In this document: positions 1 to 19,567 of the stretch, in pieces
How the letters are laid out: each line of letters starts with the position of its first letter
How positions within the stretch are numbered: the first letter of the stretch is position 1
Source of the DNA: Kiritimatiellia bacterium
GTDB taxonomy: Bacteria > Verrucomicrobiota > Kiritimatiellia > RFP12 > JAAYLN01
Assembly (NCBI GenBank): GCA_045627605.1
Contig: JAZQOA010000019.1
Coordinates: 124-64,123, forward strand
Direction: 5' to 3'
Length of the DNA stretch: 64,000 nt
Translations under genes and position numbers: made by a program
Notes under the pieces: model-generated
The model's database searches: none
Seen by the model: the letters and a program-made list of their open reading frames with translations, nothing else
What the model was told of the DNA's origin: nothing

Positions 1-235
1 AGACGAGGACGAACGGGATCAGCGCCGCGCAGGTGACGAGGCCGAAGAGCGCGCGGTAGATGTTCACCATCTCCTCCTCCATGTGCCGGAAGGAGTCCGT
101 CGGCCCGTAGTGCGGCGCGGCGTACGGGTTGCCGCCCGCGAGTTGGCGGCGCGTCTTGCCGCTCAGCCGCCGGCGGGGCCGGGCGGCGTCGCTGGCGACT
201 GGTTTTCGCGTTGTCCCCCTGGTCTTCTTTCGCAT
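1..235 (-). CDS. hypothetical protein, N-terminal part (gene continues beyond window start)
   Basis: Minus-strand ATG at 235-233 with GGGAG 9 nt upstream. Reads MRKKTRGTTRKPVASDAARPRRRLSGKTRRQLAGGNPYAAPHYGPTDSFRHMEEEMVNIYRALFGLVTCAALIPFVLV..., a basic N-terminus followed by a hydrophobic segment, open to position 1. No family recognised. Confidence 0.4.
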   Translation of the reverse strand, partial: MRKKTRGTTRKPVASDAARPRRRLSGKTRRQLAGGNPYAAPHYGPTDSFRHMEEEMVNIYRALFGLVTCAALIPFVLV

Positions 236-387
236 CGTTTTGAACTCCCGGAACATGGTTCGCTAAATTACATGTGACAAATCTAACACAACGAGATTTT
301 ATTGTCAATGAGATTTTGCGGAATGTTTTGACTGGTTGATGGTGTAGGTGAAGTTGAAGATGGTTGAATTTGCCGGAGGGTTGGCAT

Positions 388-539
388 GATCAGGATCACA
401 ATTCGAAACGATCAGGATCACAATTCGAAACGGTCAGGATCACAATTCGGCATGATCAGGATCACAATTCGAAACGATCATGATCATAATTCGGCATGAT
501 CTGGATCTCAATTCGGATACGATCTGGATCACAACTCAT
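388..539. repeat. tandem array of seven 22-23 bp direct repeats, consensus GATCAGGATCACAATTCGAAAC
   Basis: Units at 388-409, 410-431, 432-453, 454-475, 476-497, 498-520 and 521-539, head to tail without spacers. Two GATC per unit in all but one unit (13 GATC by hand count). The last three units are degenerate. Confidence 0.95.
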
Positions 540-639
540 GGGACAATCCCGCCTCCCCCGCATTCTTCAAACTTGCGCCACGCGGCTAAATTTGAGAAAA
601 TAGATGAAATGCCTTTAACCTCGCAAGAAGGAGTTTGAA

Positions 640-1275
640 ATGCGCAATATAGCCTTGTTTGCGGCCGTGGCTGTCGCGGCCGCCCTCGCCCTGCCGGCTT
701 TCGCCGAGACGAAGATCGCCACCATTGACCTCGAAAAGGTCGTCCGGCTCCATCCCAACACGGCTTCCGACAAGAAGTTGCTTGAGAAGACGCTCCAGGA
801 CTACACCCAGGAGGCCGATGCTCTTGAGGCCGCCGCCGTGGCGGCGCGCAAGGAGTTCGAGGCCGTCGCCGCCGACATGCGCAACCCCGCGCTTGGCGAG
901 AAGGCGAAGAAAAAAGCCGAGGAAGAAGCCCGCGCCAAGTTTGAGGCGGCCAAGCAGGCCGAGCAGGCGGCAATTGAAAAGAAGCGCAGCCTCCAGCGCA
1001 ACCTCACCGACCAGGAGGTGAGGATGCTCAAGCGCACGCTCGACGAGATCGAGGATGTCATTGCGAAATACGCCAAGGACAACGGCGTCTCCGCCGTGCT
1101 GCCGACCAGCGGCGCCAAGCTGGGCATCGCCCCCGCCGTCTTCTGGACGGACGATTCCCTCGACATTACCGCCGAGATCATGAAGATCATGAAGATCGAG
1201 GACGTGCCCGAGGAGGCCGAAGCCGACAAGGCCACTGAGGCGAAATCCGAGGAAAAGGCCGGGAAGCAGCAATGA
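640..1275 (+). CDS. skp: OmpH/Skp-family periplasmic chaperone
   Basis: 211 aa with an AAGGAG RBS. Signal peptide [22 protein letters not shown], then a Lys/Glu/Ala-rich coiled-coil body. Lies immediately upstream of lpxD, as in the classical skp-lpxD arrangement. Confidence 0.8.
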
Positions 1276-2321
1276 CCGTTCGTGAATTAACCGAGAAGAT
1301 CGGCGGGACTTTCGAAGGTGACGGCGACGCGGTGCTGACGCGCATGGCGAGTCTCGCCGAAGCGGGCGACGGCGACCTTTCGTTCCTTTCCAACAAGCGC
1401 TACGCCGACCAGGTCGCCACCACGAAGGCGGCGGCGGTCATCGTCTCGGACGACTGGCGCGGGGCGTCGTCGGCCAAGGCGCTTATCCGCGTTGCCAATC
1501 CCGACAAGGCCTTTTCACACGCGGCCCCATATCTTGCGCCCCCGCCTCCCGTGCGTATGCCAGGCATACACCCGACGGCGGTGGTCTCGCCCGAGGCGAA
1601 GTTGGGCGCGGGCGTCCACATCGGTCCCTTCACCGTCATCGAGAAGGGCGCCGAGATTGGCGACGGCGGCGTCATCGAGGCGCAGTGCTTCATCGGAGAG
1701 GACGTCAAGATCGGACCGATGGCCCATCTCTATCCGGGCGTCAAGATCCGCGAGCGGGTCCGCATCGGCGCGAAGTTTATCGCGCACTGCGGCGTCGTCA
1801 TCGGCGGCGACGGTTTTGGCTACTCGATCGACATGCCCCCCGGCGGGCTTCCCGTCGTGGAGAAGATTCCGCAGGTTGGCGTCGTGGCCATCGGCGACGA
1901 CGTCGAGATTGGCTGCAACACGACGATCGACCGCGCCCGTTTCGGCGAGACGCGCATCGGCAGCTGCGTGAAGATCGACAACCTCGTGCAGATCGGGCAC
2001 AACGTCCGCATCGGCAATTTCACGGGCGTCATCGCCCAGGCCGGCATCGCCGGCAGTACGACCGTCGGCAACGGGGTGCGCATCTGGGCCCAGGCCGGGC
2101 TTTCGGGCCACCTGCACATCGGAGACGGGGCGCAGGTCGGGCCGCAATGCGGCGTCGCGCGCGATGTCGCGCCGGGCGCCTACGTCATCGGCACGCCGGA
2201 GCAGAGTCTCCGCGATGTCGTGGCAATGCAGGCGGCCCCCAAGCACATCTTGAAACTGAAGTCGCAGATCAGGGAACTTGAGGCGAAAATCGCCAAGCTG
2301 GAAGGAAAATTGGGGCAATGA
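1272..2321 (+). CDS. lpxD: UDP-3-O-acylglucosamine N-acyltransferase
   Basis: 349 aa. LpxD-type N-terminal domain ([13 protein letters not shown]) followed by a long run of hexapeptide left-handed beta-helix repeats and a C-terminal helix. ATGA overlap with the skp stop. Confidence 0.9.
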
Positions 2322-3295
2322 AAGTTCTTGTCACTGGCGGCAGCGGCTACATCGGCAGCGTCACGATCCGGCGGCTGATGGCGGCCGGACATGAAATCGC
2401 AATCTTCGACAACCTCGAACGCGGCCATCGCGAGTCGATTCCCGAGGGCGTCTCGCTCCACGTCGGCGACTTGCGCGATGCCGAGTCGATTCGCGCGGCC
2501 GTGAAGGCCGAGAAGCCCGACGCCGTGATGCACTTCGCCGCCTACGCACTCGTCGGCGAGTCAATGCGCCAGCCCGAACTTTACTTCGGCAACAATGTCT
2601 CCGGCGGCGTGAATCTGCTGGAGGCAATGCGCGCGGAAGACGTCCGCCACATCGTCTTCTCCTCAAGCTGCGCCACTTACGGCGAGCCTGGAACCGACCT
2701 CATCTCGGAGGAGACCCCGCAGCGACCGACCAACCCCTACGGCGAGTCGAAGCTCATCTTCGAGAAGATGCTCCGCTGGTACGGCGAAATCCATGGTTTC
2801 AAGACGATGGCCCTCCGCTACTTCAACGCCTGCGGCGCCGAAGGCGAACTCGGCGAGGACCACCGCGTCCCGTGCGAGACCCATCTCATCCCGCTCGTCC
2901 TGCGCGTTGCGCTCGGACAGGCGGAGAAGGCGAAGATCTTCGGCGACGACTACGCCACGCCCGACGGCACCTGCATCCGCGACTACGTCCACGTCAGCGA
3001 CTTGGCGGACGCCCATTTGCGCGCCCTTGAATCGGGCGTGACGGGCGCCGTGAACCTCGGCACCGGGCGCGGCTTCTCCGTCCGCGAAGTGGTTGAGAGC
3101 GCCCGTCGCGTGACGGGGTGCGCCGTTCCGGCCGAAGTGACGCCACGCCGCGGCGGCGACCCCGACAAGCTTGTCGCGAAGGTTGGCCTCGCCTACGAGA
3201 AGCTGGGCTGGAAGGCCGCCTACACCGACATCGACGCCATCGTCGAAAGTGCCTGGAAGTGGCACGTCGCCCATCCGCACGGCTATTCAAAGTAA
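2318..3295 (+). CDS. galE: UDP-glucose 4-epimerase (NAD-dependent epimerase/dehydratase)
   Basis: 325 aa. Rossmann motif [14 protein letters not shown], catalytic YxxxK ([10 protein letters not shown]), GalE-like C-terminal half. ATGA overlap with lpxD. Confidence 0.85.
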
Positions 3296-4270: not shown

Positions 4271-7200
4271 CTACGGCTTGTCCGTAACCTCCACCTTGTA
4301 GAAGCGGACCGGGTCCGCAGCCTCCGCCGAGAACGGCACGTCTTCGTTTGATGCGCTGAACTTGAAGAGCTCCGTCGTCCACGGGCCGGATGGCGATGCC
4401 GCCGACTTGAGCTCGTAGCGGAGCCCGCCCTTCACGTTCGAGACGTTGAAACTGATCCGTCCGTCGCCCGACAGCGTAAGCGCCGGTCCGTCTCCGTCCG
4501 CGAACGCTGGCGTGACCTTCGTCGGATCGAGCTGTAAAGCCCGTACGATGCCGCCGCTCGCGATGGGAGCGCGGTAATAGTCCGACGGCACTTTGAGATG
4601 AATCTTCGTGAGGTCCTGTCCCTCCGCAAAGGCAATCTCGACACCCGGCGCGAGCATGATGTCGGTGTCTTTCTCCAGCTTCTCCAAAAGCTGCATCTTC
4701 GCTCCGTACGCCGCGCCTTCCACCGTCTTGACGAGTTCGTCCTCCAACACCGTGACCGTATTGGTCGACTTGCCGTCCGCGGACACTTCCTTGATCGTGT
4801 AGCGCGTCACGGACGAGCCGGACTCCAGACAGCCGAGATCGACGTGCTCACCCGCGAGTCGCGGATTGCCGGCAAGGTCCCAGCCTGTCGCCACCCACGC
4901 GAGGTCCTCTCCCGCATCGATGCACGGCGAGCCCGCCGCCAGCGAATACGGTACGGCGTCCGCGCCCGTTGCGTAGCCCGGCGCATCGCCGACGTAGCAG
5001 TTCGACCAGGTCGCGCCGGTCTTCGGACACCACACGCCCGGCTCGCCGCCGAGCGACACGTTGCCGCTCAGAATGCAGTTGACGAGCGAGCCCGCCGTCA
5101 CCGTCGCCTCCTTGTTGTTAGCGAGCGCGAAGTTGACGGCGCCAAACCCGCCAATGAAGTTGTCGGCGATCGTGCAGTTCTCGACCTTGCCCTTGAAGAT
5201 CTGGACGATTCCCGAGTGGTTCGTGTTGGCCGTCGTCTCCGTGAGCGCGTTCGTGCAGCAGGTGATCAGCGAATTGCGCATCACCGCCGAAGCGTGGTTC
5301 ACGACGACCGGAGCCTGGCAGGTGAACGTGGTCTTGTTGTCGCAGTTGCCGCGGATCTGATAGCCGTGAATCCAGCAGCCGTCGACGACGCAAGAGGCGC
5401 CGGTCAGGTAAATGGCCGCCGTGCCGGTGTAGCTGTAGTCGTGGACGTCGAGGCCGCGTCCGTCCAGCTCGCAGCCGACGAGCTTGCCGCTGCCCCAGAG
5501 GTTGACGATCTGGCCGGCCGAGAGACGCCCAGTGTCGCGGATGATGCAGTTTTCCACGGTGCCCGCGCCGATGTCCAGCGCGGCCGCGTAGTTCGCCTGG
5601 ATTGCGGACGACGAATAGCCGCCCGTCAGCGTGAAGCCGGAGACGACCGCCTTGTCGTTGTAGACCGTGAAGTGGCGGTGGACGCGGTCCGTGATCGCCT
5701 TGGAACTGTCGAGGATAGTCTTCTCCGGACCTTCCATGCTCTTCAGCTCGACGGCGCGTCCGATCGCGACACACGGCAGCGGCAGCGTGTACGTGCCGGG
5801 ACCAACCAGCACCCGCGGACTCCCGACCTCAAGCGCCGCGGCGAGGTCGTCCGTCGCCTTGTCCATCGTGTCATACGGCCAGACGCCCTTGCCGCCGTCA
5901 GCCTTCACGTAGCAGACAGACGGCAACACGCGCGCCACGTCCGCAAGCGTGTACGACACCGTCTGTCCGCCGCGCGTCACCGTGAGCGTCACCGCGTAGA
6001 GTCCCGGCGCCGCATAGGAATGGTCGACGACCGGCCAGCCCGTCGCCGTCGTGCCGTCCCCGAAGTCCCAGACCGCCGCGACGTCGCCGGTGCCCGTCGC
6101 CTTGCCGGTGAACGTGACCGCGAGCTGGTGTCCGGGCGCGGACTCCTCCGCGCTCGCCTCGAAGCCGATCTCCAGCTCGTCCGTCGCCTGATGCTCGTAG
6201 CAGCCGAGGTCCACCGCCGCGCCGACGACGCGTGCCGAGCCCGCGAGGTCGAACTCTCCGAAGAGCGACGCGTCGCCGTTCTTCTCGCCGCCCGCGTCCA
6301 CGCACTTCGACAGGCCCGCCAGCCGATAGTCGCCGTTCGCCTCGTCCGCGAAATTCGGATTGCCGTTCAGGTTGTGGTTCGGATTGTCCTTCGTCACGAC
6401 GTCCAGCTGGTCGCAGAGCGTCGTGTAGACATAGCCGACGTTGGCGTTGTTGTAGATGTCGCCGTAGGCGTTCATCGCGGACCGGTTGCCGCGGATGATG
6501 CAGTTCTCGACCAGCGCCGTATTCGCCGCAACGCGGATGCCGGAGTTCGGTCCGCGCACCTCGTTGTTGACGATCGTGCAGTTGATGACACGCGAATGGG
6601 CGTCCGCATAGACGATGTTGCCGCGGTTCGCATTGAGGTCGATGCCCATCTGGTTGTCCGCGACGAGCGCGTTCCGGAGGACAATCGGCGCCGTCGCCGC
6701 CGAGCCCTTCAGGTTGATCATCGAGTAGTTGGCGCTGAGGCCGCCGAGTAGCCAGTTGCACATCGCGAGCCCGTCGATCGTCGCGCCCTTCGCGCCAATC
6801 GCGTTCACGTAGATGCCGCCCTGCACGTTGCCCGCGAGGACCGGCTGCGGCGGCAGCAGGATGTCCGTCGCAAGGACATGTCCGACCGTCGCGTTGATGT
6901 TGAGGAAGGTCGAATTCGCCGCGGCGCGCGCATGGAACGAGACGTCCGAGACCGTGCCCGCCGTGAGGTCGACGCCCAGGTTGCGTCCCGTCGTCGTGTG
7001 CGCCGTGTTCGTGAAGGTGAAGCCCGCGAGCAGCGCGCCGTCCGCCGTCACGTACGCGCCGTTGCGCGGATAGACAAACCCGCCGTCCATCAGCGTCCGT
7101 TCGCGCCCGCCGACGCCGATCACGTTGACGCGCTTGGCGAGCCGGATGCACGTCAGGTAGTCGGCCTTCGCGTTGAAGCTCCGCTCCGTTCCGAAGTAAT

Positions 7201-10200
7201 GTCCCGGCGCGACAAGCACGGTCGCCCCTTCCTCCGCGGCATCGACCGCCGCCTGGACGGTCGCGTACGCGTCGTCCCACGACGTGCCCTTGTTCGCGTC
7301 GTCACCGTCGGGGCTTACGTAGACGTAGTCGCCCGCCGCGAGCTGCGTCATCTGGCGCTCCCACTCGACCTTGGTGGCGAAGCCGTCATGCACATAGTCG
7401 AGCGTACTGCCCGTACCGGAGTCCGTCTCGGTCCACGCGCCCGTCACCGGATCGAGCCGGTAACGCCTCCAGCCCGTGCAAGTCGACTTCGCCCACGCGC
7501 CGTAGGTCTCTTCGGCGGGAACGGAGAGCGTCCGCTTCGCCCCCATCGCGAGCCCGTCAAGCACCGCGTTGCCGACAACCAGGCGTTCGTTAAGGGGAAG
7601 CCCGGCCTCAAGCGGCTTGTCCTGGACGGCGCTCTTCAGGTAGGCTCCCGAGACGGCATCATAGAGCGCAACCTCGGACGAACCGTCAGCGAGGAACCGC
7701 ACGCAGGGCTTTAGGTCAAGGACGGCCTCGCCGGATGCATCGCGCACCGTGAAGGCGTAGAGGCGTCCCGTGAAGTTGGCGCCCGTCGCGGCGGTCGAGC
7801 CGTTGCCGATCAGAAGCGCCGCGGTGGAAGTCGAAGCCGCAACCGACTCCAGCACTTCGCCGTCGATGACGACGTTGCCTGTACCGCGTTCGCGGTAGAC
7901 AACGGTATGGACGTTCCCGTCGCAGAGCGCGACGTTCGTGCCGACGGACTTGCCCGTGCGGTTGGATCCGTTCAGTCCCCAACGCCAGTAGCTGCCGGCC
8001 ATCGACAGCGCATAGTAGTTCGCCCCCTTGGAGGTGCCGAACACCCAGCCGTTGTTCAGGTAGTCGCAGCTGAAGGTCGCCGTCGTCTCGTGGTCGGACG
8101 GGATGACGGACGTCGTCACGTACGCCCCCTTCGGGAAGACGACGGAGTCGAGGAAGCGCGGACCGAAGTCCGCCCGGATCGTGCGCGCGCGGTTCATCGT
8201 CACGGTGATCGTGGGGCTCTTCGGATCGGCCGTGCCAATGTCGCCCGTCCACCCCCAGAATCGTTCGCCGGTCTTGGGCGTGGCGGTCAAGGTGACTGCG
8301 GCGTCGTAAGCCTTCCATCCGCTCGCGGCGGTCACGGTTCCCTTCGTCGCGTCAAGCGGAGCGACGTCAAGCCTGCACTCGACGTCCCACTGGGCGACGA
8401 GCCGCGCGTCCGTGTTGCCGTGGGTGTAGGTGAAGTTCGCGGTCTTGGTCGTCGTCGTGCCGCCCTGCGTCAGCTTCCAGCCCGTGCAGGTCGCGCGCAT
8501 GCCGTCGCCGACAGTCTGCTGGGCGGATGGCTTCTTGACCGCGATCGTCTCGCCCGACTTGTGCCAGTGCGTGACGCCGTACTTGACGCCCAGCGCGTCG
8601 CACGGGAAGCAGATGGGGTTCCCGGAGACTACGATGGACGAGCCTGGCCTGATTAACGCCCACCGGAGCGCCTCGAAGTCACGCGTCCCCTCGCTCGGAT
8701 AGAAGCGGTCCTGCACGGCGTCGTAGAGTCCGTACTTGCCGTTCCGGTAGCTGCCGGCGAGATCCGAGACGAGCATTTCACGTCCGCAGACACGGTCCGC
8801 GAGCTGCATCGAGTAGAAGTCGACTGCGGCGGCGTTGCTCCAGCCAGACCCCGGCTGGTTGTAGCTCATGAAGAGCGACATGTCGCCGCCTGCGGTGAAG
8901 GACGCGGCGGGAGCGGTGAACGCCTTCTGCAGCTTCTGCGTGTCGTAGGTGACGTTGGACATCACGTTGCCGGCGATCGTCAGCTGGTAGAGCGTGTCGC
9001 GCCCGAGCGCCGACTTCGTGTCGCTGCGAACGGGACCGTAGTCGAAGCGCTGGTTCTTGCCGACGGAAAGGAAGTAGGAGAAGTCATCGAGGCTCGTCGA
9101 CGTCCCGCTCGTCCGCGCACCCCACAGGCACTGGTTCACGTCCGCGCTCGGCGCGTTCACGAGCGAGAAGAGCGCGGACGCCACGGTCTCGCTCGACGGA
9201 CGGTAGTCGAGCTGCACGCGCTGGCCCTCCGAACCGCCCGCACCGTCCGTCCGCAGGAAATCGTAGTACGCCCCGTCCGGAACCGCCGCGGCCTCGTCGC
9301 CAGCCATGAAGAGGAGCTGCGACTTGACGTAACGCTCCGTCTTGGTCGATCCGTCGCTGTTGGTGTAGTTCATGATCGTGTAGCCGCTCGCGTAAGACGG
9401 ATCCCACTGCACGGCCGAAAGCTTGCTGGGCAGGAGCGAGCTCTTCATCGCAAGCGTCGTCGACCCGCCGCCGTCCAGCACGTAGCCGCCGTCGCAGCCG
9501 CAGGCCTGGAGCAGTGTGCACGAGTCGAGGTAGGTGATGCCTTTCGAGACCGAGCGCCGTCCGTCGATCACAAAGAGGTAGATGATGCCCGTCTTTTCGT
9601 TGACGCCCAACACGGGGAAACCTGCCGTTGGGTTGCCCGAGGTCCAGGAGGTTCCCTCCAGCGAGCACTTGCCGTCGATGAGCACGCAATCGCTCGGAAG
9701 CGCGTTGTCCCAGTGCTCGAGAATGCGCGGCGTGCCGAAGCCGCGCGTGAAGCGGAAGAGCTTGTAGGGGTCGTTGTCATTGAAGAGGAGCCCGCCGCCA
9801 CCGCTGACGTCCGGGTTCACGACGGTTCCGCCGACCTTCGTGCGGTAGGAGAGCTTGCCGGTCGAAGACGAGTAGAACGTCCCGCTTACGCCAAAGAGGG
9901 CGCCGTTGTTCTTCGTGACGGTCGAGGTGCGCGTCAGCGAGTTGTTGACGACGAGCTTCATCTTGAGCTTCGCCTTCTTGTAGTCGATGCGCAAGAGACT
10001 CACGTCGTCCTTCACGCCGAAGAGCTTCGTGTACTGCGCGAACGAGTACTCGACGCCCGGCATGATCTCGCACCACTTCGCGTTCGTGCTCGAGATGCCC
10101 CAGGCGTCCAGGTCCGCGCCGGGGATGGACGCCTTTATCTTTTTCACGGCGTCGGCACCCGAATACACAGTCGCGGCGCCGTAAAGCGTCGTTGCGGCGG

Positions 10201-10246
10201 CGAGCGCCAGAATCGCTGCAAGAGTAGTTTTCATTTTCATAGTCAA
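4271..10246 (-). CDS. giant secreted multidomain protein (phosphodiester glycosidase-like, LamG-like, two parallel beta-helix modules, PKD)
   Basis: 1991-aa uninterrupted ORF. Signal peptide MTMKMKTTLAAILALAAATTLYGA. N-terminal NAGPA-like block (VLDGGGSTTLAM). InlB-B-repeat-like segments (ERFWGWTGDIG...ITVTMNRARTIRADF). LamG-like segment (LLIGNGSTAATGANFTGRLYAFTV). Two pectin-lyase-fold modules, each opening with YVSPDGDD...GTSWDDAY...APGHY or CYVKADGG...GPGTYTL and ending with NPNFAD..GDYRL or GSPCIDAG. PKD motif WDFGDGTTATG...HSYAAPGLYAVTLTV. Confidence 0.85.
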   Translation of the reverse strand: MTMKMKTTLAAILALAAATTLYGAATVYSGADAVKKIKASIPGADLDAWGISSTNAKWCEIMPGVEYSFAQYTKLFGVKDDVSLLRIDYKKAKLKMKLVVNNSLTRTSTVTKNNGALFGVSGTFYSSSTGKLSYRTKVGGTVVNPDVSGGGGLLFNDNDPYKLFRFTRGFGTPRILEHWDNALPSDCVLIDGKCSLEGTSWTSGNPTAGFPVLGVNEKTGIIYLFVIDGRRSVSKGITYLDSCTLLQACGCDGGYVLDGGGSTTLAMKSSLLPSKLSAVQWDPSYASGYTIMNYTNSDGSTKTERYVKSQLLFMAGDEAAAVPDGAYYDFLRTDGAGGSEGQRVQLDYRPSSETVASALFSLVNAPSADVNQCLWGARTSGTSTSLDDFSYFLSVGKNQRFDYGPVRSDTKSALGRDTLYQLTIAGNVMSNVTYDTQKLQKAFTAPAASFTAGGDMSLFMSYNQPGSGWSNAAAVDFYSMQLADRVCGREMLVSDLAGSYRNGKYGLYDAVQDRFYPSEGTRDFEALRWALIRPGSSIVVSGNPICFPCDALGVKYGVTHWHKSGETIAVKKPSAQQTVGDGMRATCTGWKLTQGGTTTTKTANFTYTHGNTDARLVAQWDVECRLDVAPLDATKGTVTAASGWKAYDAAVTLTATPKTGERFWGWTGDIGTADPKSPTITVTMNRARTIRADFGPRFLDSVVFPKGAYVTTSVIPSDHETTATFSCDYLNNGWVFGTSKGANYYALSMAGSYWRWGLNGSNRTGKSVGTNVALCDGNVHTVVYRERGTGNVVIDGEVLESVAASTSTAALLIGNGSTAATGANFTGRLYAFTVRDASGEAVLDLKPCVRFLADGSSEVALYDAVSGAYLKSAVQDKPLEAGLPLNERLVVGNAVLDGLAMGAKRTLSVPAEETYGAWAKSTCTGWRRYRLDPVTGAWTETDSGTGSTLDYVHDGFATKVEWERQMTQLAAGDYVYVSPDGDDANKGTSWDDAYATVQAAVDAAEEGATVLVAPGHYFGTERSFNAKADYLTCIRLAKRVNVIGVGGRERTLMDGGFVYPRNGAYVTADGALLAGFTFTNTAHTTTGRNLGVDLTAGTVSDVSFHARAAANSTFLNINATVGHVLATDILLPPQPVLAGNVQGGIYVNAIGAKGATIDGLAMCNWLLGGLSANYSMINLKGSAATAPIVLRNALVADNQMGIDLNANRGNIVYADAHSRVINCTIVNNEVRGPNSGIRVAANTALVENCIIRGNRSAMNAYGDIYNNANVGYVYTTLCDQLDVVTKDNPNHNLNGNPNFADEANGDYRLAGLSKCVDAGGEKNGDASLFGEFDLAGSARVVGAAVDLGCYEHQATDELEIGFEASAEESAPGHQLAVTFTGKATGTGDVAAVWDFGDGTTATGWPVVDHSYAAPGLYAVTLTVTRGGQTVSYTLADVARVLPSVCYVKADGGKGVWPYDTMDKATDDLAAALEVGSPRVLVGPGTYTLPLPCVAIGRAVELKSMEGPEKTILDSSKAITDRVHRHFTVYNDKAVVSGFTLTGGYSSSAIQANYAAALDIGAGTVENCIIRDTGRLSAGQIVNLWGSGKLVGCELDGRGLDVHDYSYTGTAAIYLTGASCVVDGCWIHGYQIRGNCDNKTTFTCQAPVVVNHASAVMRNSLITCCTNALTETTANTNHSGIVQIFKGKVENCTIADNFIGGFGAVNFALANNKEATVTAGSLVNCILSGNVSLGGEPGVWCPKTGATWSNCYVGDAPGYATGADAVPYSLAAGSPCIDAGEDLAWVATGWDLAGNPRLAGEHVDLGCLESGSSVTRYTIKEVSADGKSTNTVTVLEDELVKTVEGAAYGAKMQLLEKLEKDTDIMLAPGVEIAFAEGQDLTKIHLKVPSDYYRAPIASGGIVRALQLDPTKVTPAFADGDGPALTLSGDGRISFNVSNVKGGLRYELKSAASPSGPWTTELFKFSASNEDVPFSAEAADPVRFYKVEVTDKP

Positions 10247-10512: not shown

Positions 10513-11937
10513 TCAGTCGGCATCCGCGAAGAGGTCGTCCAGCGTCACTTCGGACTGGACGGCCTGGGCGTGTTCCGTCCGCGCGAGACCGCTGGCCGTG
10601 ACGAGGGTAAGGTGAATGGACTTGCGCGTCTTCGTGACCATTCGGAAGGCTTCGATCACGTTGTCCAGCGTGGCGCGTGTGCGCCCGTCGAGGATGTAAA
10701 GTCCCCGCGAGAACTTCATTTCGCAGACGTTCACGACATTATCCGCCCGGTCAATCAAAAGGTCGATCTGCGCACCGACGGGGCAGGTGTCGTCCGCCTG
10801 GTGCCGCCATGAGCAAACTCCGCAGTGTAGGCCGGAGATGCCCAGTCGCCGCTTGATCTGCGCGACATGCTGTAGGCAGAGAAGTTCGAATGACAGCCCC
10901 AGCCACGTTGAGCGCTGCGGGGAATCTGCCGTTGCTGTCCAGAACGCCGGATCGCCCTTCGCGGTACCTGTCAGGAACCGGTGGTGGAACAGGGAGAAAT
11001 TGTCGACCAGCTGGAAGACAGTTCCCTTTTTCTTCGCGCCGAATGGCAGGTAGGGGCGTATGAAGCCGCTTTGCTCAAGTGTCGCCAGGGCTTCCGTCAG
11101 CTTGCCGGAACTTGCCATCCCGAGTGCTGACTGAAGCTCTGTCTGCCCCATGCCGGTCCTTTTCGTCGCCAGGGCCTCGATGACCGCGGTGTGAAGGGAG
11201 GCGTTCTTGAAAAGCGATGCGTATAGCTCCCGGTATTCGTTTGCGAGGGGGGCGCCGTCGATGAAAAACATGCGGTCGATGTTCTGCGCAAGGCTGAAAC
11301 GCTTGTCAAGGTAACGCCAGTAGTAGGGGATTCCGCCAAGCGCCATGTATCCTTCGGCGATTTCCCTCCGGGACATCGCCAGGCCTCTTTCCGCCGCGAA
11401 CCGCTCGCATTCGCCCAAAGTAAACGGCATCAGGCGAATCCGGCACGTCACGCGGTTGTGAAGTCCCCCGTGATTGGAAAACAGGTTTTTCACCATCCAC
11501 GCCGCGGCCGAGCCGCAAACAACCAGCAGGACATCCTTGCGGTATGTGCAGAAGTCGTTCCAGAATGCTTCGAGCGCCGCGAGAAATCCGGACTTTGGCG
11601 TGTCCATCCAGGGCATCTCGTCGATGAAGACAACCTTGCGGGCAAGTGCGCTTGCTTTCACGACCTGTTCTAGCCAGGCAAACGCCTCACCCCAGTCCTT
11701 CGGGCGGCGCTTTTGCCGACATCCGAAATCCTGCAAGGATTTCAGAAACTGCGACAACTGCCTTTCGCCTCCTTCCTGCGCAAGGCCGGAATGGCGAAAT
11801 GCAAAGCGGTCGGCGAAGACCTCCCGTATCAAATAGGTCTTTCCGACGCGCCAACGTCCGTAAACCGCGACGAATTCCGACTCGCCGGATTCGTACATGC
11901 GGATAAGTTCGTCTCGCTCCTTGATTCGGCCAATCAT
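10513..11937 (-). CDS. AAA+ ATPase of the archaeal-ATPase/DUF234 type with a C-terminal PD-(D/E)xK-like motif
   Basis: 474 aa from ATG 11937 (AAGGA RBS 6 nt upstream; the ORF track start at 11991 adds 18 aa). Walker A YGRWRVGKTY and Walker B VVFIDEMPWMD. C-terminal QIDLLIDRADNVVNVCEMKF resembles the D...E.K block of DUF234. The gene looks lower in GC than its neighbours. Confidence 0.75.
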   Translation of the reverse strand: MIGRIKERDELIRMYESGESEFVAVYGRWRVGKTYLIREVFADRFAFRHSGLAQEGGERQLSQFLKSLQDFGCRQKRRPKDWGEAFAWLEQVVKASALARKVVFIDEMPWMDTPKSGFLAALEAFWNDFCTYRKDVLLVVCGSAAAWMVKNLFSNHGGLHNRVTCRIRLMPFTLGECERFAAERGLAMSRREIAEGYMALGGIPYYWRYLDKRFSLAQNIDRMFFIDGAPLANEYRELYASLFKNASLHTAVIEALATKRTGMGQTELQSALGMASSGKLTEALATLEQSGFIRPYLPFGAKKKGTVFQLVDNFSLFHHRFLTGTAKGDPAFWTATADSPQRSTWLGLSFELLCLQHVAQIKRRLGISGLHCGVCSWRHQADDTCPVGAQIDLLIDRADNVVNVCEMKFSRGLYILDGRTRATLDNVIEAFRMVTKTRKSIHLTLVTASGLARTEHAQAVQSEVTLDDLFADAD

Positions 11938-12103
11938 AAAGAGTCCTTGTTCTTTGGGGAAAATTATGTTGCAAATGACACATTCCGTCAAGTATTTTCG
12001 GGAAATCGCCTTATTTTGGTGCGGAATCGCTGTTTTTATGTGACATTTCGCACCTAAATGTGAGTTCGGCGGGCAAAGGCAAGGCCGGGATTTCCCGTCG
12101 GAT

Positions 12104-16600: not shown

Positions 16601-17590
16601 ATGCTGCGCTATGCGCTTAGGCGGCTCTGGCAACTTGTCCCGACCACTGCGGGCGTCCTGCTGCTGACGTTCGTGCTTTTCCACGTCGTAGGAGGCTCCT
16701 CCGCCGAGGTGGTTCTCGGCCAGCATGCCGACGCCGCGTCAATCGCGGCGTTCAACGCGCGCTACGGCTACGACAAGCCCCTGCTTCTTGGCGGCTGGAC
16801 GGAAACCGCCGGGCAGCCGCTGGCCCGCCGCGTCGGCCACCTCTTCGACACCCAGCTGGTGAACTACGTGGCGTCGCTCGCCCGCGGGGACCTGGGCGAC
16901 AGCGCCGCCTACGGCATGCGGGTCGCGGACGTGCTGAGGGCGGGCGTCGGCCCGTCGCTTTCGATTACGGTGCCGATTCTTCTTGGCGGCACGGTGATCG
17001 CCCTGATGCTCGCCATGTTGGCGGCCGCGCACCAAGGGCGGTTCGCGGACAAGGCCGTGCTTCTGGGGTCGGCCTTCCTGATGAGCGTCAACTACGTGGT
17101 GTGGATTCTCGCGGGGCAGTTCTTTCTCTCCTACAAGCTGCGGCTCTTCCCGATTTGGGGCTTTGAGGGCGTGGCGTATGTCGTTCTCCCGGTGCTGATC
17201 GGCATTTTCAGCGGGCTTGGACGCGATATCCGCTATTTCCGCACGGTCTTTCTCGACGAGATGGACCGCCCCTACGTCCGCACGGCTGTTTCGAAGGGGT
17301 TGCCTCCGCGGCGCGTCTTCTGGGGGCATGTCTTCCCGAACGCGCTGATTCCCGTGGTCACCTACGTGAGCCTTTCGATTCCGTATCTTTTCACTGGGTC
17401 GCTGCTGCTGGAGAGCTTTTTCGGCATCCCCGGCCTTGGCGGCGTCAGCATCAACGCGGTGAATTCGGCCGACATGGCGACAGTTCGCGCGGTCGTGGTT
17501 CTGGGCGCGTTGCTCTACCAGCTTGTCAATCTCGTCACGGACCTTTGCTACGCCTGGCTCGATCCGCGTGTCAGCTACGAGGGCGCGTAG
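16601..17590 (+). CDS. ABC transporter permease, DppB/OppB-like
   Basis: 329 aa from ATG 16601; the upstream part of the 467-aa ORF is Arg/Pro-rich read-through overlapping recA. N-terminus MLRYALRRLWQLVPTTAGVLLLTFVLFHV and cytoplasmic-loop signature YVRTAVSKGLPPRRVFWGHVFPNAL. Confidence 0.85.
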   Translation: MLRYALRRLWQLVPTTAGVLLLTFVLFHVVGGSSAEVVLGQHADAASIAAFNARYGYDKPLLLGGWTETAGQPLARRVGHLFDTQLVNYVASLARGDLGDSAAYGMRVADVLRAGVGPSLSITVPILLGGTVIALMLAMLAAAHQGRFADKAVLLGSAFLMSVNYVVWILAGQFFLSYKLRLFPIWGFEGVAYVVLPVLIGIFSGLGRDIRYFRTVFLDEMDRPYVRTAVSKGLPPRRVFWGHVFPNALIPVVTYVSLSIPYLFTGSLLLESFFGIPGLGGVSINAVNSADMATVRAVVVLGALLYQLVNLVTDLCYAWLDPRVSYEGA

Positions 17591-18131
17591 CGCAATTGGC
17601 GGCGGCGGGGCGCGGGGGCTTTTGCCTTTCCCGAACCGCCTCGTATTTGAGCGGTGTTTCGGCGGCGATGAGTTCGCCGGGTTCGGTCTGGGGCGTTTCG
17701 TATTCGGGCAGTACGCCGCCCGTTATGGCCGCGTAGAGCTTGGCCAGCGTCACGTCGCGGACGAATTGGCGGAGTTCGCATTCCCAGACGACGAAGAGCC
17801 GCCAGCCCATTTCCGCCCATTGCCTTTCGTGAAGGGCGTCGCGTTCGACATTGCGCCTGAACTTCTCGCTCCAGAACTTGACGTGCGACTTCGGCGTTGT
17901 CGCCACCTTGCATCCCGGGTGACGGTGCCAGAAGCAGCCGCGCACCTCGATGATGGCCTTGTATTTCGGGAGTACGACGTCGGGGTGTCCGGGCAGCATC
18001 TTCACGTTGACGCGGAAGCGGAGCCCGCGCGAAAAAAGATAGTGGCGGACGATCAGTTCGGGCTTGGTGTCCTTGCTGTGGATTTTGCTCATCGTGAGGC
18101 TGCGTTCCTCAACTGTAAGCGTATCGGTCAT
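17571..18131 (-). CDS. vsr: very short patch repair endonuclease
   Basis: 186 aa. SKIHSKDTKPE, FRVNVKMLPGHPDVVLPKYKAIIEVRGCFWHRHPGC, FWSEKFRRNVERD and WRLFVVWECEL align residue for residue with E. coli Vsr. About 45 extra C-terminal residues. The 3' end overlaps the permease 3' end by 20 nt. Confidence 0.85.
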   Translation of the reverse strand: MTDTLTVEERSLTMSKIHSKDTKPELIVRHYLFSRGLRFRVNVKMLPGHPDVVLPKYKAIIEVRGCFWHRHPGCKVATTPKSHVKFWSEKFRRNVERDALHERQWAEMGWRLFVVWECELRQFVRDVTLAKLYAAITGGVLPEYETPQTEPGELIAAETPLKYEAVRERQKPPRPAAANCATRPRS

Positions 18132-18184: not shown

Positions 18185-19567
18185 ATGGGAAAAAACAGGT
18201 TTTTCACGGCGGTTGCCGTGGCGGCTGCGTGTGCCGGCTTGGTCGTCGGCGCCGAAGAGCAGGGTTGGATTCTGGGGGGCGACCTGAGGGTGCGCCAGGA
18301 AGCGATGGACAACATCCCCGGCCATCCGGGCGATCCGTCGTCGCCGTATCCGACGGCTTCGGGGAAGAACCTCAACTGGATTCGCTACAGGCCACGCCTC
18401 TGGACGGGGTATTCGGGCGAAAACAGCGGTTTCTATTTCCGCGTGGCGGACGAAATGCGCGAGACCATCGTCCGCCACGGGAAGTCCCGCAAGGACTGCT
18501 CGTATAGCTTCCCCGACGAAATCGTCGTCGACAACCTCTACCTCTACTTCAATGGGCTGTGGGATGGCCTGGTCGACGTCAAGGCCGGTCGGCAGGACTT
18601 CGTCGACGGTGGGCGCCCGGCCTTCGGCGCGGGACGCCTCCTCATGGACGGCACCGGCTACGACGGGTCGCGCACCTCGTATTTCGACGCCTTGCGGTTG
18701 ACGTTCCACCTGACGGAGAAGTCAACCCTTGACGTCTTCGGCATCTACAACGACGGGCAAAACCCCCTGCGCCTCGGCCACCCGACGCCCTCGCCGCGCG
18801 CCGCCAACGCCATCGATCCCCGCGACAGCGACGAGATGGACGAGTTCGGCGGCGGCCTCTACTACAAGGGCAGGGAACTTGGCGACGACTTCCCGTGCGA
18901 GATCTACTACGTCTTCAAGCGGGAAACCCCGTTCCACCGCCTCGGCGAGCGCCAGCCCGGCCGCGACACGCATACGGTTGGTGCGCGCCTGACGCCGCGC
19001 CTTTCCGAAACGCTCACGGCGGAGTTCGAAGGCGCGTTCCAGCTTGGCGAAAAGGACAATGGCGCCGACGTTTCGGGCGCGATGGGTTTCGCGGGGCTCA
19101 CCTATAGTCCCGTGGCGGAGGCCGGCAGTCCGCGTCCCTTCTTCAACGCCTCCGTCTACTACCTTTCAGGCGACAGCCGGCGCGGCGCGGAAGACCGCGA
19201 CACAAGCTGGAATCCGCTTTGGGGGCGCTGGCCGCAGTGCAGCGAGATGCTGGTGTACGGCCCGCTCTACGGCCTGGGCTACTGGTCGAACATGACGTAT
19301 CCTTCGCTGGGTGCCGGACTCGACATCGCGCCGCGCCACCGTCTCAACGCCTACGCAGGCCCGATGTTCTGCGCGGTGCAGGACGGCCTTGGCGGCGGCG
19401 ACGAGATGTACAAGGGGCTTTTGGGCGTGGCGCGCTACGACTTCCCCATCCTGCGCGAGCACAATCTCTTCGGCCATGTCCTCGCCGAAGTTTTCGAGCC
19501 TGGCGACTACTATGTGACGGACAAGACCGCCTACTTCCTCCGCTGGGAACTTTCCGTGGCGTTCTAA
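18185..19567 (+). CDS. putative outer-membrane beta-barrel protein (alginate-export/porin-like)
   Basis: 460 aa. Signal peptide MGKNRFFTAVAVAAACAGLVVGA, aromatic-rich alternating strands, C-terminal ...LRWELSVAF ending in Phe. Family assignment unverified. Confidence 0.6.
   Translation: MGKNRFFTAVAVAAACAGLVVGAEEQGWILGGDLRVRQEAMDNIPGHPGDPSSPYPTASGKNLNWIRYRPRLWTGYSGENSGFYFRVADEMRETIVRHGKSRKDCSYSFPDEIVVDNLYLYFNGLWDGLVDVKAGRQDFVDGGRPAFGAGRLLMDGTGYDGSRTSYFDALRLTFHLTEKSTLDVFGIYNDGQNPLRLGHPTPSPRAANAIDPRDSDEMDEFGGGLYYKGRELGDDFPCEIYYVFKRETPFHRLGERQPGRDTHTVGARLTPRLSETLTAEFEGAFQLGEKDNGADVSGAMGFAGLTYSPVAEAGSPRPFFNASVYYLSGDSRRGAEDRDTSWNPLWGRWPQCSEMLVYGPLYGLGYWSNMTYPSLGAGLDIAPRHRLNAYAGPMFCAVQDGLGGGDEMYKGLLGVARYDFPILREHNLFGHVLAEVFEPGDYYVTDKTAYFLRWELSVAF

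Follow-up and report, generated by a model that had tools for sequence, protein, structure and literature searches.

The window, by which we mean the whole 64,000-nucleotide stretch analysed here, comes from an uncultured Kiritimatiellae bacterium, an assignment borne out by the named Skp homologues, and is chromosomal in character, carrying skp-lpxD-epimerase-ArsP_2, grpE-dnaJ, tRNA-Tyr and rpsL; a ribosomal-protein cluster also appears to be present, as judged by ORF layout only. At its left end, the 5' part of a minus-strand gene is divergent from an operon whose genes encode Skp/OmpH, LpxD and an epimerase. The sequence-only reading that preceded this analysis had described the divergent gene, the skp-lpxD-galE genes downstream and a long AT-richer gap between them (236-639). 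All three were borne out, the divergent gene being real (GC3 = 0.92) and the gap having a GC content of 40-46% compared with 63.6% for the window. Within the gap, we observed a tandem array located between two predicted divergent core promoters (Table 1). The distance from the end of the array to the skp -35 element is 30 bp, and the array extends from ~-67 to -220 relative to the inferred skp start site (near 608, plus strand) and from about -115 to -270 relative to the inferred start site of the divergent gene (near 273, minus strand), each uncertain by ~2 bp.

Table 1. Coordinates of the array, its neighbours and the array of the paralogous locus L041 (window positions unless L041 is named).
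Feature	Position	Strand	Description
Divergent family gene, 5' part	1-235	-	78 codons; full length 441 aa in P0063/L040
Spacer, upstream region of the divergent gene	236-387	-	AT-rich; from ~335 leftwards homologous to the region upstream of the L041 paralogue
Predicted sigma-70-type promoter of the divergent gene	280-308	-	TTGACA (308-303), 17 bp, TAGATT (285-280)
Tandem array	388-541		unit order A A B A C D E; consensus GATCAGGATCACAATTCG + AAAC/GCAT
Degenerate skp-proximal units D + E	498-541		every allele ends in D, G or H, then E; copy-number change confined to the left of them
8-mer GACAATCC	542-549	+	abuts the right edge of the array; also in the skp upstream region of array-less relative L027
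Predicted skp core promoter	573-601	+	TTGCGC (573-578), 17 bp, TGnGAAAAT (593-601)
skp-lpxD-epimerase operon	640-3295	+	skp 640-1275, lpxD 1272-2321, galE-like epimerase 2318-3295; then an ArsP_2 permease gene
L041 array	L041 9598-9790		~140 bp upstream of the -35; seven full 25-26-bp units after a 14-bp partial, GTGGTGCGAGATACTACAATTTCGC; TRF score 222

Several further features of the window were observed. The minus strand encodes a giant NAGPA/PKD/beta-helix protein of 1991 aa (4271-10246), with strain counterparts in L001 (1987 aa) and L038 (2014 aa), and a 492-aa protein (10513-11991) that matched an archaeal-type ATPase_2 domain and, weakly, an IclR-like winged helix. Two exact-protein look-ups aimed at the far end of the contig gave no match. 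A vsr gene (17571-18131, minus strand) encodes a Vsr very-short-patch repair endonuclease (PF03852, E 6e-28), and its neighbour (18185-19567) encodes a 460-aa protein with no family match. The tetramer CTAG is nearly absent from the window, with 2 sites (11670 and 63599) compared with 55 expected under a second-order Markov model. The C-terminal region of Skp contains a 9-bp coding repeat, AGATCATGA, present in 2.6 copies (1175-1197; KIMKIMKI) and kept in an 81%-identical relative (L026 1753-1774).

The array consists of seven head-to-tail units of 22-23 bp, starting at 388, 410, 432, 454, 476, 498 and 521. TRF called 388-534 with a period of 22, 6.6 copies, 82% matches and 0% indels, and placed a 44-bp period (86% matches) slightly ahead of the 22-bp one. 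Seven matches to the 18-nt core GATCAGGATCACAATTCG were found in the 64-kb window at <=3 mismatches, every one of them within 388-538, compared with an expectation of 0.08 from shuffles. Each unit comprises two direct GATCWN hexamers followed by AATTCG and a variable tail of 4-5 nt. When the base before them is included, the two hexamers read as a quasi-palindrome, TGATC-NN-GATCA (core TGATCAGGATCA), and unit C is a perfect palindrome, ATGATCATGATCAT. These palindromic cores were the source of the single-strand DNA fold of the array, for which z was only -2.2. Between the region around the start codon of the divergent gene (234-244, ATCGTTTTGAA) and the unit junction TTCGAAACGAT (402-412 and 468-478), complementarity is 91%, and ~1 match of this type is expected by chance.

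Both TRF and core matching thus confirmed the tandem array of seven 22-23 bp units proposed in the sequence-only reading, and its statement that the array matches no described element stands. The strict alternation of GAAAC and GGCAT unit ends that it had described was replaced by the unit order given in Table 1. It had also placed every site on one face of the helix; 22 bp slightly exceeds two turns (~2.1), so successive sites would rotate round the helix with a drift of ~34 degrees per unit. The claim that no ORF covers the array was corrected in that two spurious ORFs (480-638 on the plus strand and 536-973 on the minus strand) clip its edge. A CRISPR array, already dismissed on the lack of spacers, was rejected here as well, as the units abut and no cas domains were found among the neighbours. 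No match to Rfam covariance models was obtained for positions 1-3000 at E <=1, and a structured RNA was rejected on this basis.

Contigs from other strains were gathered from other samples by exact look-ups of Skp and of the members of its 90%-identity cluster, and were assigned to the same species because their flanks were 96.4-97.7% identical to the window. Six different alleles were observed in six strains, with 4 units (ACHE in L002), 4 units (ABDE in L032/L033), 6 units (ABAFGE in L001/L003), 7 units (AABACDE in the window), 8 units (IAIKLCDE in L038/L039) and 9 units (AAABIAJDE in L030). All alleles derive from short-read assemblies; three of them were recovered identically in ENA-megahit and Logan assemblies, while for the 9-unit allele the sole Logan contig (L031) spans the last units only, and those match. 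The array is one of just 2-3 gaps per 4-11 kb between strains. Its inner units varied and were reshuffled, with the first unit on the left and the degenerate pair next to skp being kept. Several short contigs begin within the array or at its edge, as would be expected if those samples were heterogeneous or thinly covered. A copy-number-variable promoter element was among the roles suggested earlier, together with a comparison of repeat number across strains, and the 4 to 9 units observed give direct support for the variability. As the strains are 2-3.6% diverged, the six alleles are no proof of a high switching rate.

In the relatives outside the species, no array was found. In four relatives whose Skp is 66-81% identical, the skp operon and its promoter were kept and the array was absent, and the array was missing from all relatives below ~90% Skp identity. 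The TTGC and TTTGAGA.AAT elements of the skp promoter were invariant in the four array-less relatives, which have different upstream genes and short skp upstream regions (107-246 bp); the operon is conserved despite different upstream neighbours. The promoter motif TTGC..(17)..TTTGAGAAAAT was likewise kept across Kiritimatiellae relatives L026-L029, whose upstream neighbours are wholly different. Local alignments of a proto-unit to the four array-less relatives were no better than those of shuffles. The sharing of GACAATCC with the skp upstream region of one of them suggests that ancestral skp upstream sequence restarts at the array edge, at 542.

Public collections were also scanned. A degenerate two-unit pattern run against 185,579 GTDB representative genomes and JGI metagenomes returned nothing like this array. 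Two pattern scans of IMG/VR and one protein scan were all empty, and a phage origin was rejected on these results. A blastn search of PLSDB plasmids with the region gave no match. The uniqueness of the unit, which the sequence-only reading had proposed to check, therefore extended to the 64-kb window, the GTDB representatives, the JGI metagenomes, IMG/VR and plasmids, none of which held a second copy.

A word-indexed homology search with the 81-aa fragment of the divergent gene product found nothing, while an exhaustive HMMER search led to a full-length protein, P0063 (441 aa). No match to P0063 was found in Pfam, PHROG, NCBIfam, PDB sequences or Foldseek, and the AF2 model was weak (mean pLDDT 53). 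Its homologues in the ENA and Logan assemblies were observed in Kiritimatiellae-type metagenome contigs only, and the sole named homologue is from a Kiritimatiellae MAG; the family is Kiritimatiellae-specific, with members of about 440-480 aa. Further members are P0069 and P0071-P0080, among them the NCBI MAG protein IKE55_01790. The alignment of the family has four parts: a basic N-terminus, one hydrophobic segment, a conserved core running to ~residue 255 and including MLRFGSMLCDLEAYVDN, and a hypervariable, low-complexity C-terminal half that carries coding tandem repeats. One such repeat, of 24 bp in 3.9 copies (GMAKGIAS-like), was observed at L041 10928-11021, with more copies in P0071. 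Each assembly of the species (L001, L002, L030, L032 and L038, from two pipelines) stops 210-285 nt into the divergent gene. Family loci L040 and L041 are 97-99% identical over the first 300 nt and then ~50%, and we attribute the universal contig breaks to this 5' segment being near-identical between family members.

One homologous locus, L041, was recovered with long flanks. It encodes P0070, which is 64% identical to P0063, and it is not next to skp. L041 comes from the same sample as L001, has an equal GC content and has no single-copy gene in common with the window, on which grounds the window gene and the L041 gene are probably paralogues within one genome. The promoter and 5' gene region of L041 are 91% identical to those of the window, the core promoter itself being nearly identical (L041 9928-9956). 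An array is also present upstream of this paralogue (Table 1), and it contains 0 GATC and ends 25 bp short of the start codon of the neighbouring gene. We tested for homology between the units of the two loci and rejected it, as it was not significant in either orientation. In the ~119 kb of Kiritimatiellae DNA examined, these were the only two strong non-coding arrays. With non-coding arrays occurring about once per 60 kb, a second one would fall in that particular 430 bp with a chance of < ~1%.

Since the array at the equivalent position of the paralogue is unrelated in sequence and free of GATC, the window array appears, on the basis of the two loci, to go with the upstream region of the divergent gene and not with skp. 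The sequence-only reading had tied it to skp; the L041 array, upstream of the paralogue and away from skp, shifts the evidence in favour of the divergent gene family. The combination of near-identical promoters and unrelated units argues against a common sequence-specific binder. With spacer-less head-to-tail repeats, a strain-polymorphic copy number and a promoter-bearing intergenic position, the array belongs to the known class of promoter-associated VNTRs, with the twist that paralogous genes each have a private array.

The 13 GATC counted in the sequence-only reading were all present within the 152 bp, while the densest 152-bp stretch elsewhere in the window has 5 and the mean is 0.59. Its accompanying claim that GATC is uncommon in this genome did not hold, as 259 sites were found in 64 kb (observed/expected 1.21 by mononucleotide composition and 0.86 by a second-order Markov model). 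The local excess is explained by the amplification of one GATC-bearing unit, and we infer that the GATC richness of the array is an incidental by-product of amplifying a unit with two GATC. Variation among the 12 unit types affects 11 of 22 positions, including 1 of 8 GATC positions and 10 of the 14 others (hypergeometric p ~0.012 on the unit table), and this hints modestly at constraint. In all 12 unit types the second GATC is unchanged, while the first tolerates GGTC, a variant unit that persists in four alleles.

A Dam/SeqA-style switch had been proposed for these sites. In such a switch, Dam-type methylation of the 7-16 clustered GATC would either contend with a binding protein or attract one resembling SeqA, resulting in a heritable ON/OFF state. 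The density of 13 GATC within 152 bp and the retention of the second GATC in all 12 unit types are consistent with such a switch, and its likeness to the pap and agn43 Dam switches and to the SeqA-bound GATC clusters of oriC lies in the locally dense GATC of a regulatory region. Those systems, however, have 2-3 GATC inside Lrp or OxyR sites, or lie at oriC, and belong to Gammaproteobacteria; to our knowledge SeqA is known only from some members of that group. Here the GATC density comes from unit amplification. The ordinary, unconstrained frequency of GATC in the genome, the toleration of the GGTC unit in four alleles and the complete lack of GATC in the L041 array all weaken the proposal, and no Dam gene was seen in the scanned part of the 64-kb window. 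We consider a methylation switch most unlikely.

The palindromic cores also bear on an operator or activator array for skp-lpxD, in which the units would be CRP/FNR-type boxes (TGAT-N4-ATCA, right half GATCACA) with dimers stacked upstream of the skp promoter. The CRP consensus is TGTGA-N6-TCACA and the FNR consensus is TTGAT-N4-ATCAA, and the resemblance of TGATCAGGATCA and of the perfect palindrome in unit C to both, together with the 30 bp left between the array and the skp -35, is what such an operator would present. Against it, neither exact consensus matched anywhere in the window, and TGAT-N4-ATCA occurred in the window only at 387 and 453, both in the array; a CRP/FNR regulon was rejected for the lack of further boxes. 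The left half-site is complete only in units preceded by T, the array-less relatives run the same skp promoter, and the array of the paralogue differs in sequence and adjoins an unrelated gene. An operator of this type is therefore very improbable.

Direct repeats of 22 bp beside an AT-rich stretch also have an iteron-like or sopC-like anatomy, and a replication origin (iterons or oriC) or a partition centromere was weighed on that account, the ribosomal-protein cluster and the location of most rightward genes on the plus strand being in keeping with it. The likeness to plasmid iterons and to the F sopC centromere extends to ~22-bp spacer-less direct repeats (44-bp super-period), each with a short palindrome. 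The array differs from them in its chromosomal housekeeping context, in having no Rep or ParB partner and no DnaA boxes, and in its unconserved copy number, which varies freely between strains. No DnaA box was found at <=1 mismatch within 11 kb, the nearest match to TTATCCACA at that threshold being at 11898. There is no adjacent rep, dnaA or par gene, no Bac_DnaA domain was detected among the scanned proteins, and neither plasmid or phage similarity nor a GC-skew switch was observed. The oriC and iteron candidates were rejected on the DnaA boxes, the skew and the plasmid search, and the probability of an origin or centromere is close to negligible. The iteron-like platform suggested in the sequence-only reading would at most be a generic protein-binding array, as no rep gene, DnaA boxes or plasmid or phage relatives were found.

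Chance matches aside, the GTDB and JGI degenerate-pattern scans mainly returned the left ends of acidobacterial IS21-family elements (L008, L015, L018 and L019), in addition to L014 and L022, each a short GATC-rich repeat. In the IS21 elements, five 22-23-bp GATCGTGATCA..ATTCCGG units precede istA by ~110 bp, and about two more, inverted, follow istB. For L008 the repeats are at 7203-7317 (istA-proximal) and 4557-4607 (other end), and its istA appears frameshifted. The terminal inverted repeats of IS21 (L1/L2, R1/R2) are direct repeats ~23 bp apart that are bound by IstA (PMC10122671). The window array may be considered as marking where a mobile or duplicated cassette ends: it would be a multi-repeat transposon end or relic, in the manner of IS21, Tn7 or Mu, at the edge of an inserted family-gene module. 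Both arrays lie at the outer edge of that module, with GACAATCC resuming at 542 in the window and the L041 array stopping just before the neighbouring start codon, and the family gene is in different genomic contexts at the two loci.

The likeness to the IS21 ends (PMC10122671; L008, L015, L018 and L019) covers abutting 22-23 bp direct repeats, a GATC-NN-GATCA core with an ATTC block, and a location ~100 bp upstream of a gene start. The likeness of the unit core, however, was imposed by the search pattern itself. Moreover, no IstA or IstB was found in the window (tblastn, nothing better than E 0.05), no TG...CA terminus was present, and no inverted copy of either unit was observed, whether in the 64 kb of the window or in L041 up to 10 kb to each side. 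The flanks had no significant similarity to IS21 ends; one 11-mer, CGGAATGTTTT (window 319-329), is common to the inner edge of the acidobacterial ends (p ~0.03), and it is in the wrong order, on the other side of the array, so that the match is probably chance. Homology to IS21 ends was rejected on the absence of IstA and IstB, the dissimilar flanks and the pattern-forced core. Seven to nine abutting units with copy variation at the strain level are also atypical of functional transposon ends, the array having 4-9 units compared with 2-5 in IS21. We regard a cassette border as improbable.

We favour a reading of the array as a young, lineage-specific minisatellite, a promoter-associated VNTR in the spacer between the two predicted divergent promoters. 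The adjacent gene would be a member of a repeat-prone paralogous family in which the promoter and N-terminal half are conserved and the C-terminal half is hypervariable. Units would be gained and lost by slipped-strand mispairing or by unequal recombination among the inner units, with the degenerate skp-side units staying fixed. The number of units would set the copies of a short quasi-palindromic site (TGATC-NN-GATCA + AATTCG) upstream of both genes, and a changed number of sites would tune transcription in the fashion of a contingency locus. Copy-number-dependent tuning of the family gene, possibly also of skp, is the likeliest function in our judgement, held tentatively and at a little under even chances. 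In M. tuberculosis, promoter tandem repeats that vary in copy number give rise to phase variation (PMC12817950). The window array resembles those promoter repeats and contingency VNTRs in its head-to-tail units, its promoter-bearing intergenic region and a copy number that differs between close strains, and a further likeness to contingency loci is that the neighbouring gene is itself repeat-rich and variable. It differs from them in lying upstream of both predicted core promoters, in duplicating no promoter elements, in the unrelated sequence of the array at the same position in the paralogue and in its host. Against the tuning reading, any sequence-specific binder would have to differ between the two loci despite their near-identical promoters.

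The chief alternative reading of these observations is a selectively neutral minisatellite, in which a 22-bp segment of a permissive AT-rich spacer was multiplied by replication slippage and neither promoter is affected. The array of the paralogue would then reflect a common mutational propensity, or a common history as an insertion junction, and not function. The absence of the array below ~90% Skp identity and the lack of any unit sequence common to the two arrays agree with neutrality; the degenerate edge units and homogenised inner units are the expectation under neutral concerted evolution, and no further copies of the motif were found in 64 kb to suggest a regulon. Set against this are the recurrence of a seven-plus-unit array at the equivalent position of the paralogue, at the low chance given above, the lower variability of the GATC and AATTC positions compared with the rest of the unit, and the retention of at least 4 units in 6 of 6 strains. 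A neutral array is somewhat unlikely in our view, though it carries real weight.

A more speculative extension of the tuning reading is that the private arrays of 22-26-bp sites at each family member might be locus-specific protein-binding platforms, iteron- or centromere-like, read by the basic, membrane-anchored family protein or a partner, so that each change in site number between strains would heritably turn up or down, like a rheostat, the family gene and, at this locus, the essential skp-lpxD envelope operon. In Vibrio cholerae, TTTTGAT heptad repeats upstream of ctxAB are bound by ToxR, and the likeness lies in direct repeats that precede a promoter and differ in number between strains, with a family product here that is basic and membrane-anchored. 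The ToxR-bound repeats are 7 bp compared with 22 bp here, and the family protein has no wHTH or recognisable DNA-binding domain. We give such a rheostat only a slim chance.

If neutral, the array is an ordinary minisatellite. It may be used as a strain-typing marker, and the near-identical 5' ends of the family systematically break short-read assemblies of the species. The analysis also exposed a new, repeat-prone gene family in which the promoter and N-terminal half are conserved, the C-terminal half is hypervariable and the arrays upstream are private. The window array is positioned directly upstream of an outer-membrane biogenesis operon. Kiritimatiellae are a little-studied PVC lineage of which few members have been cultured, and contingency regulation of the VNTR type, if the array tunes transcription, would be a first example among them.
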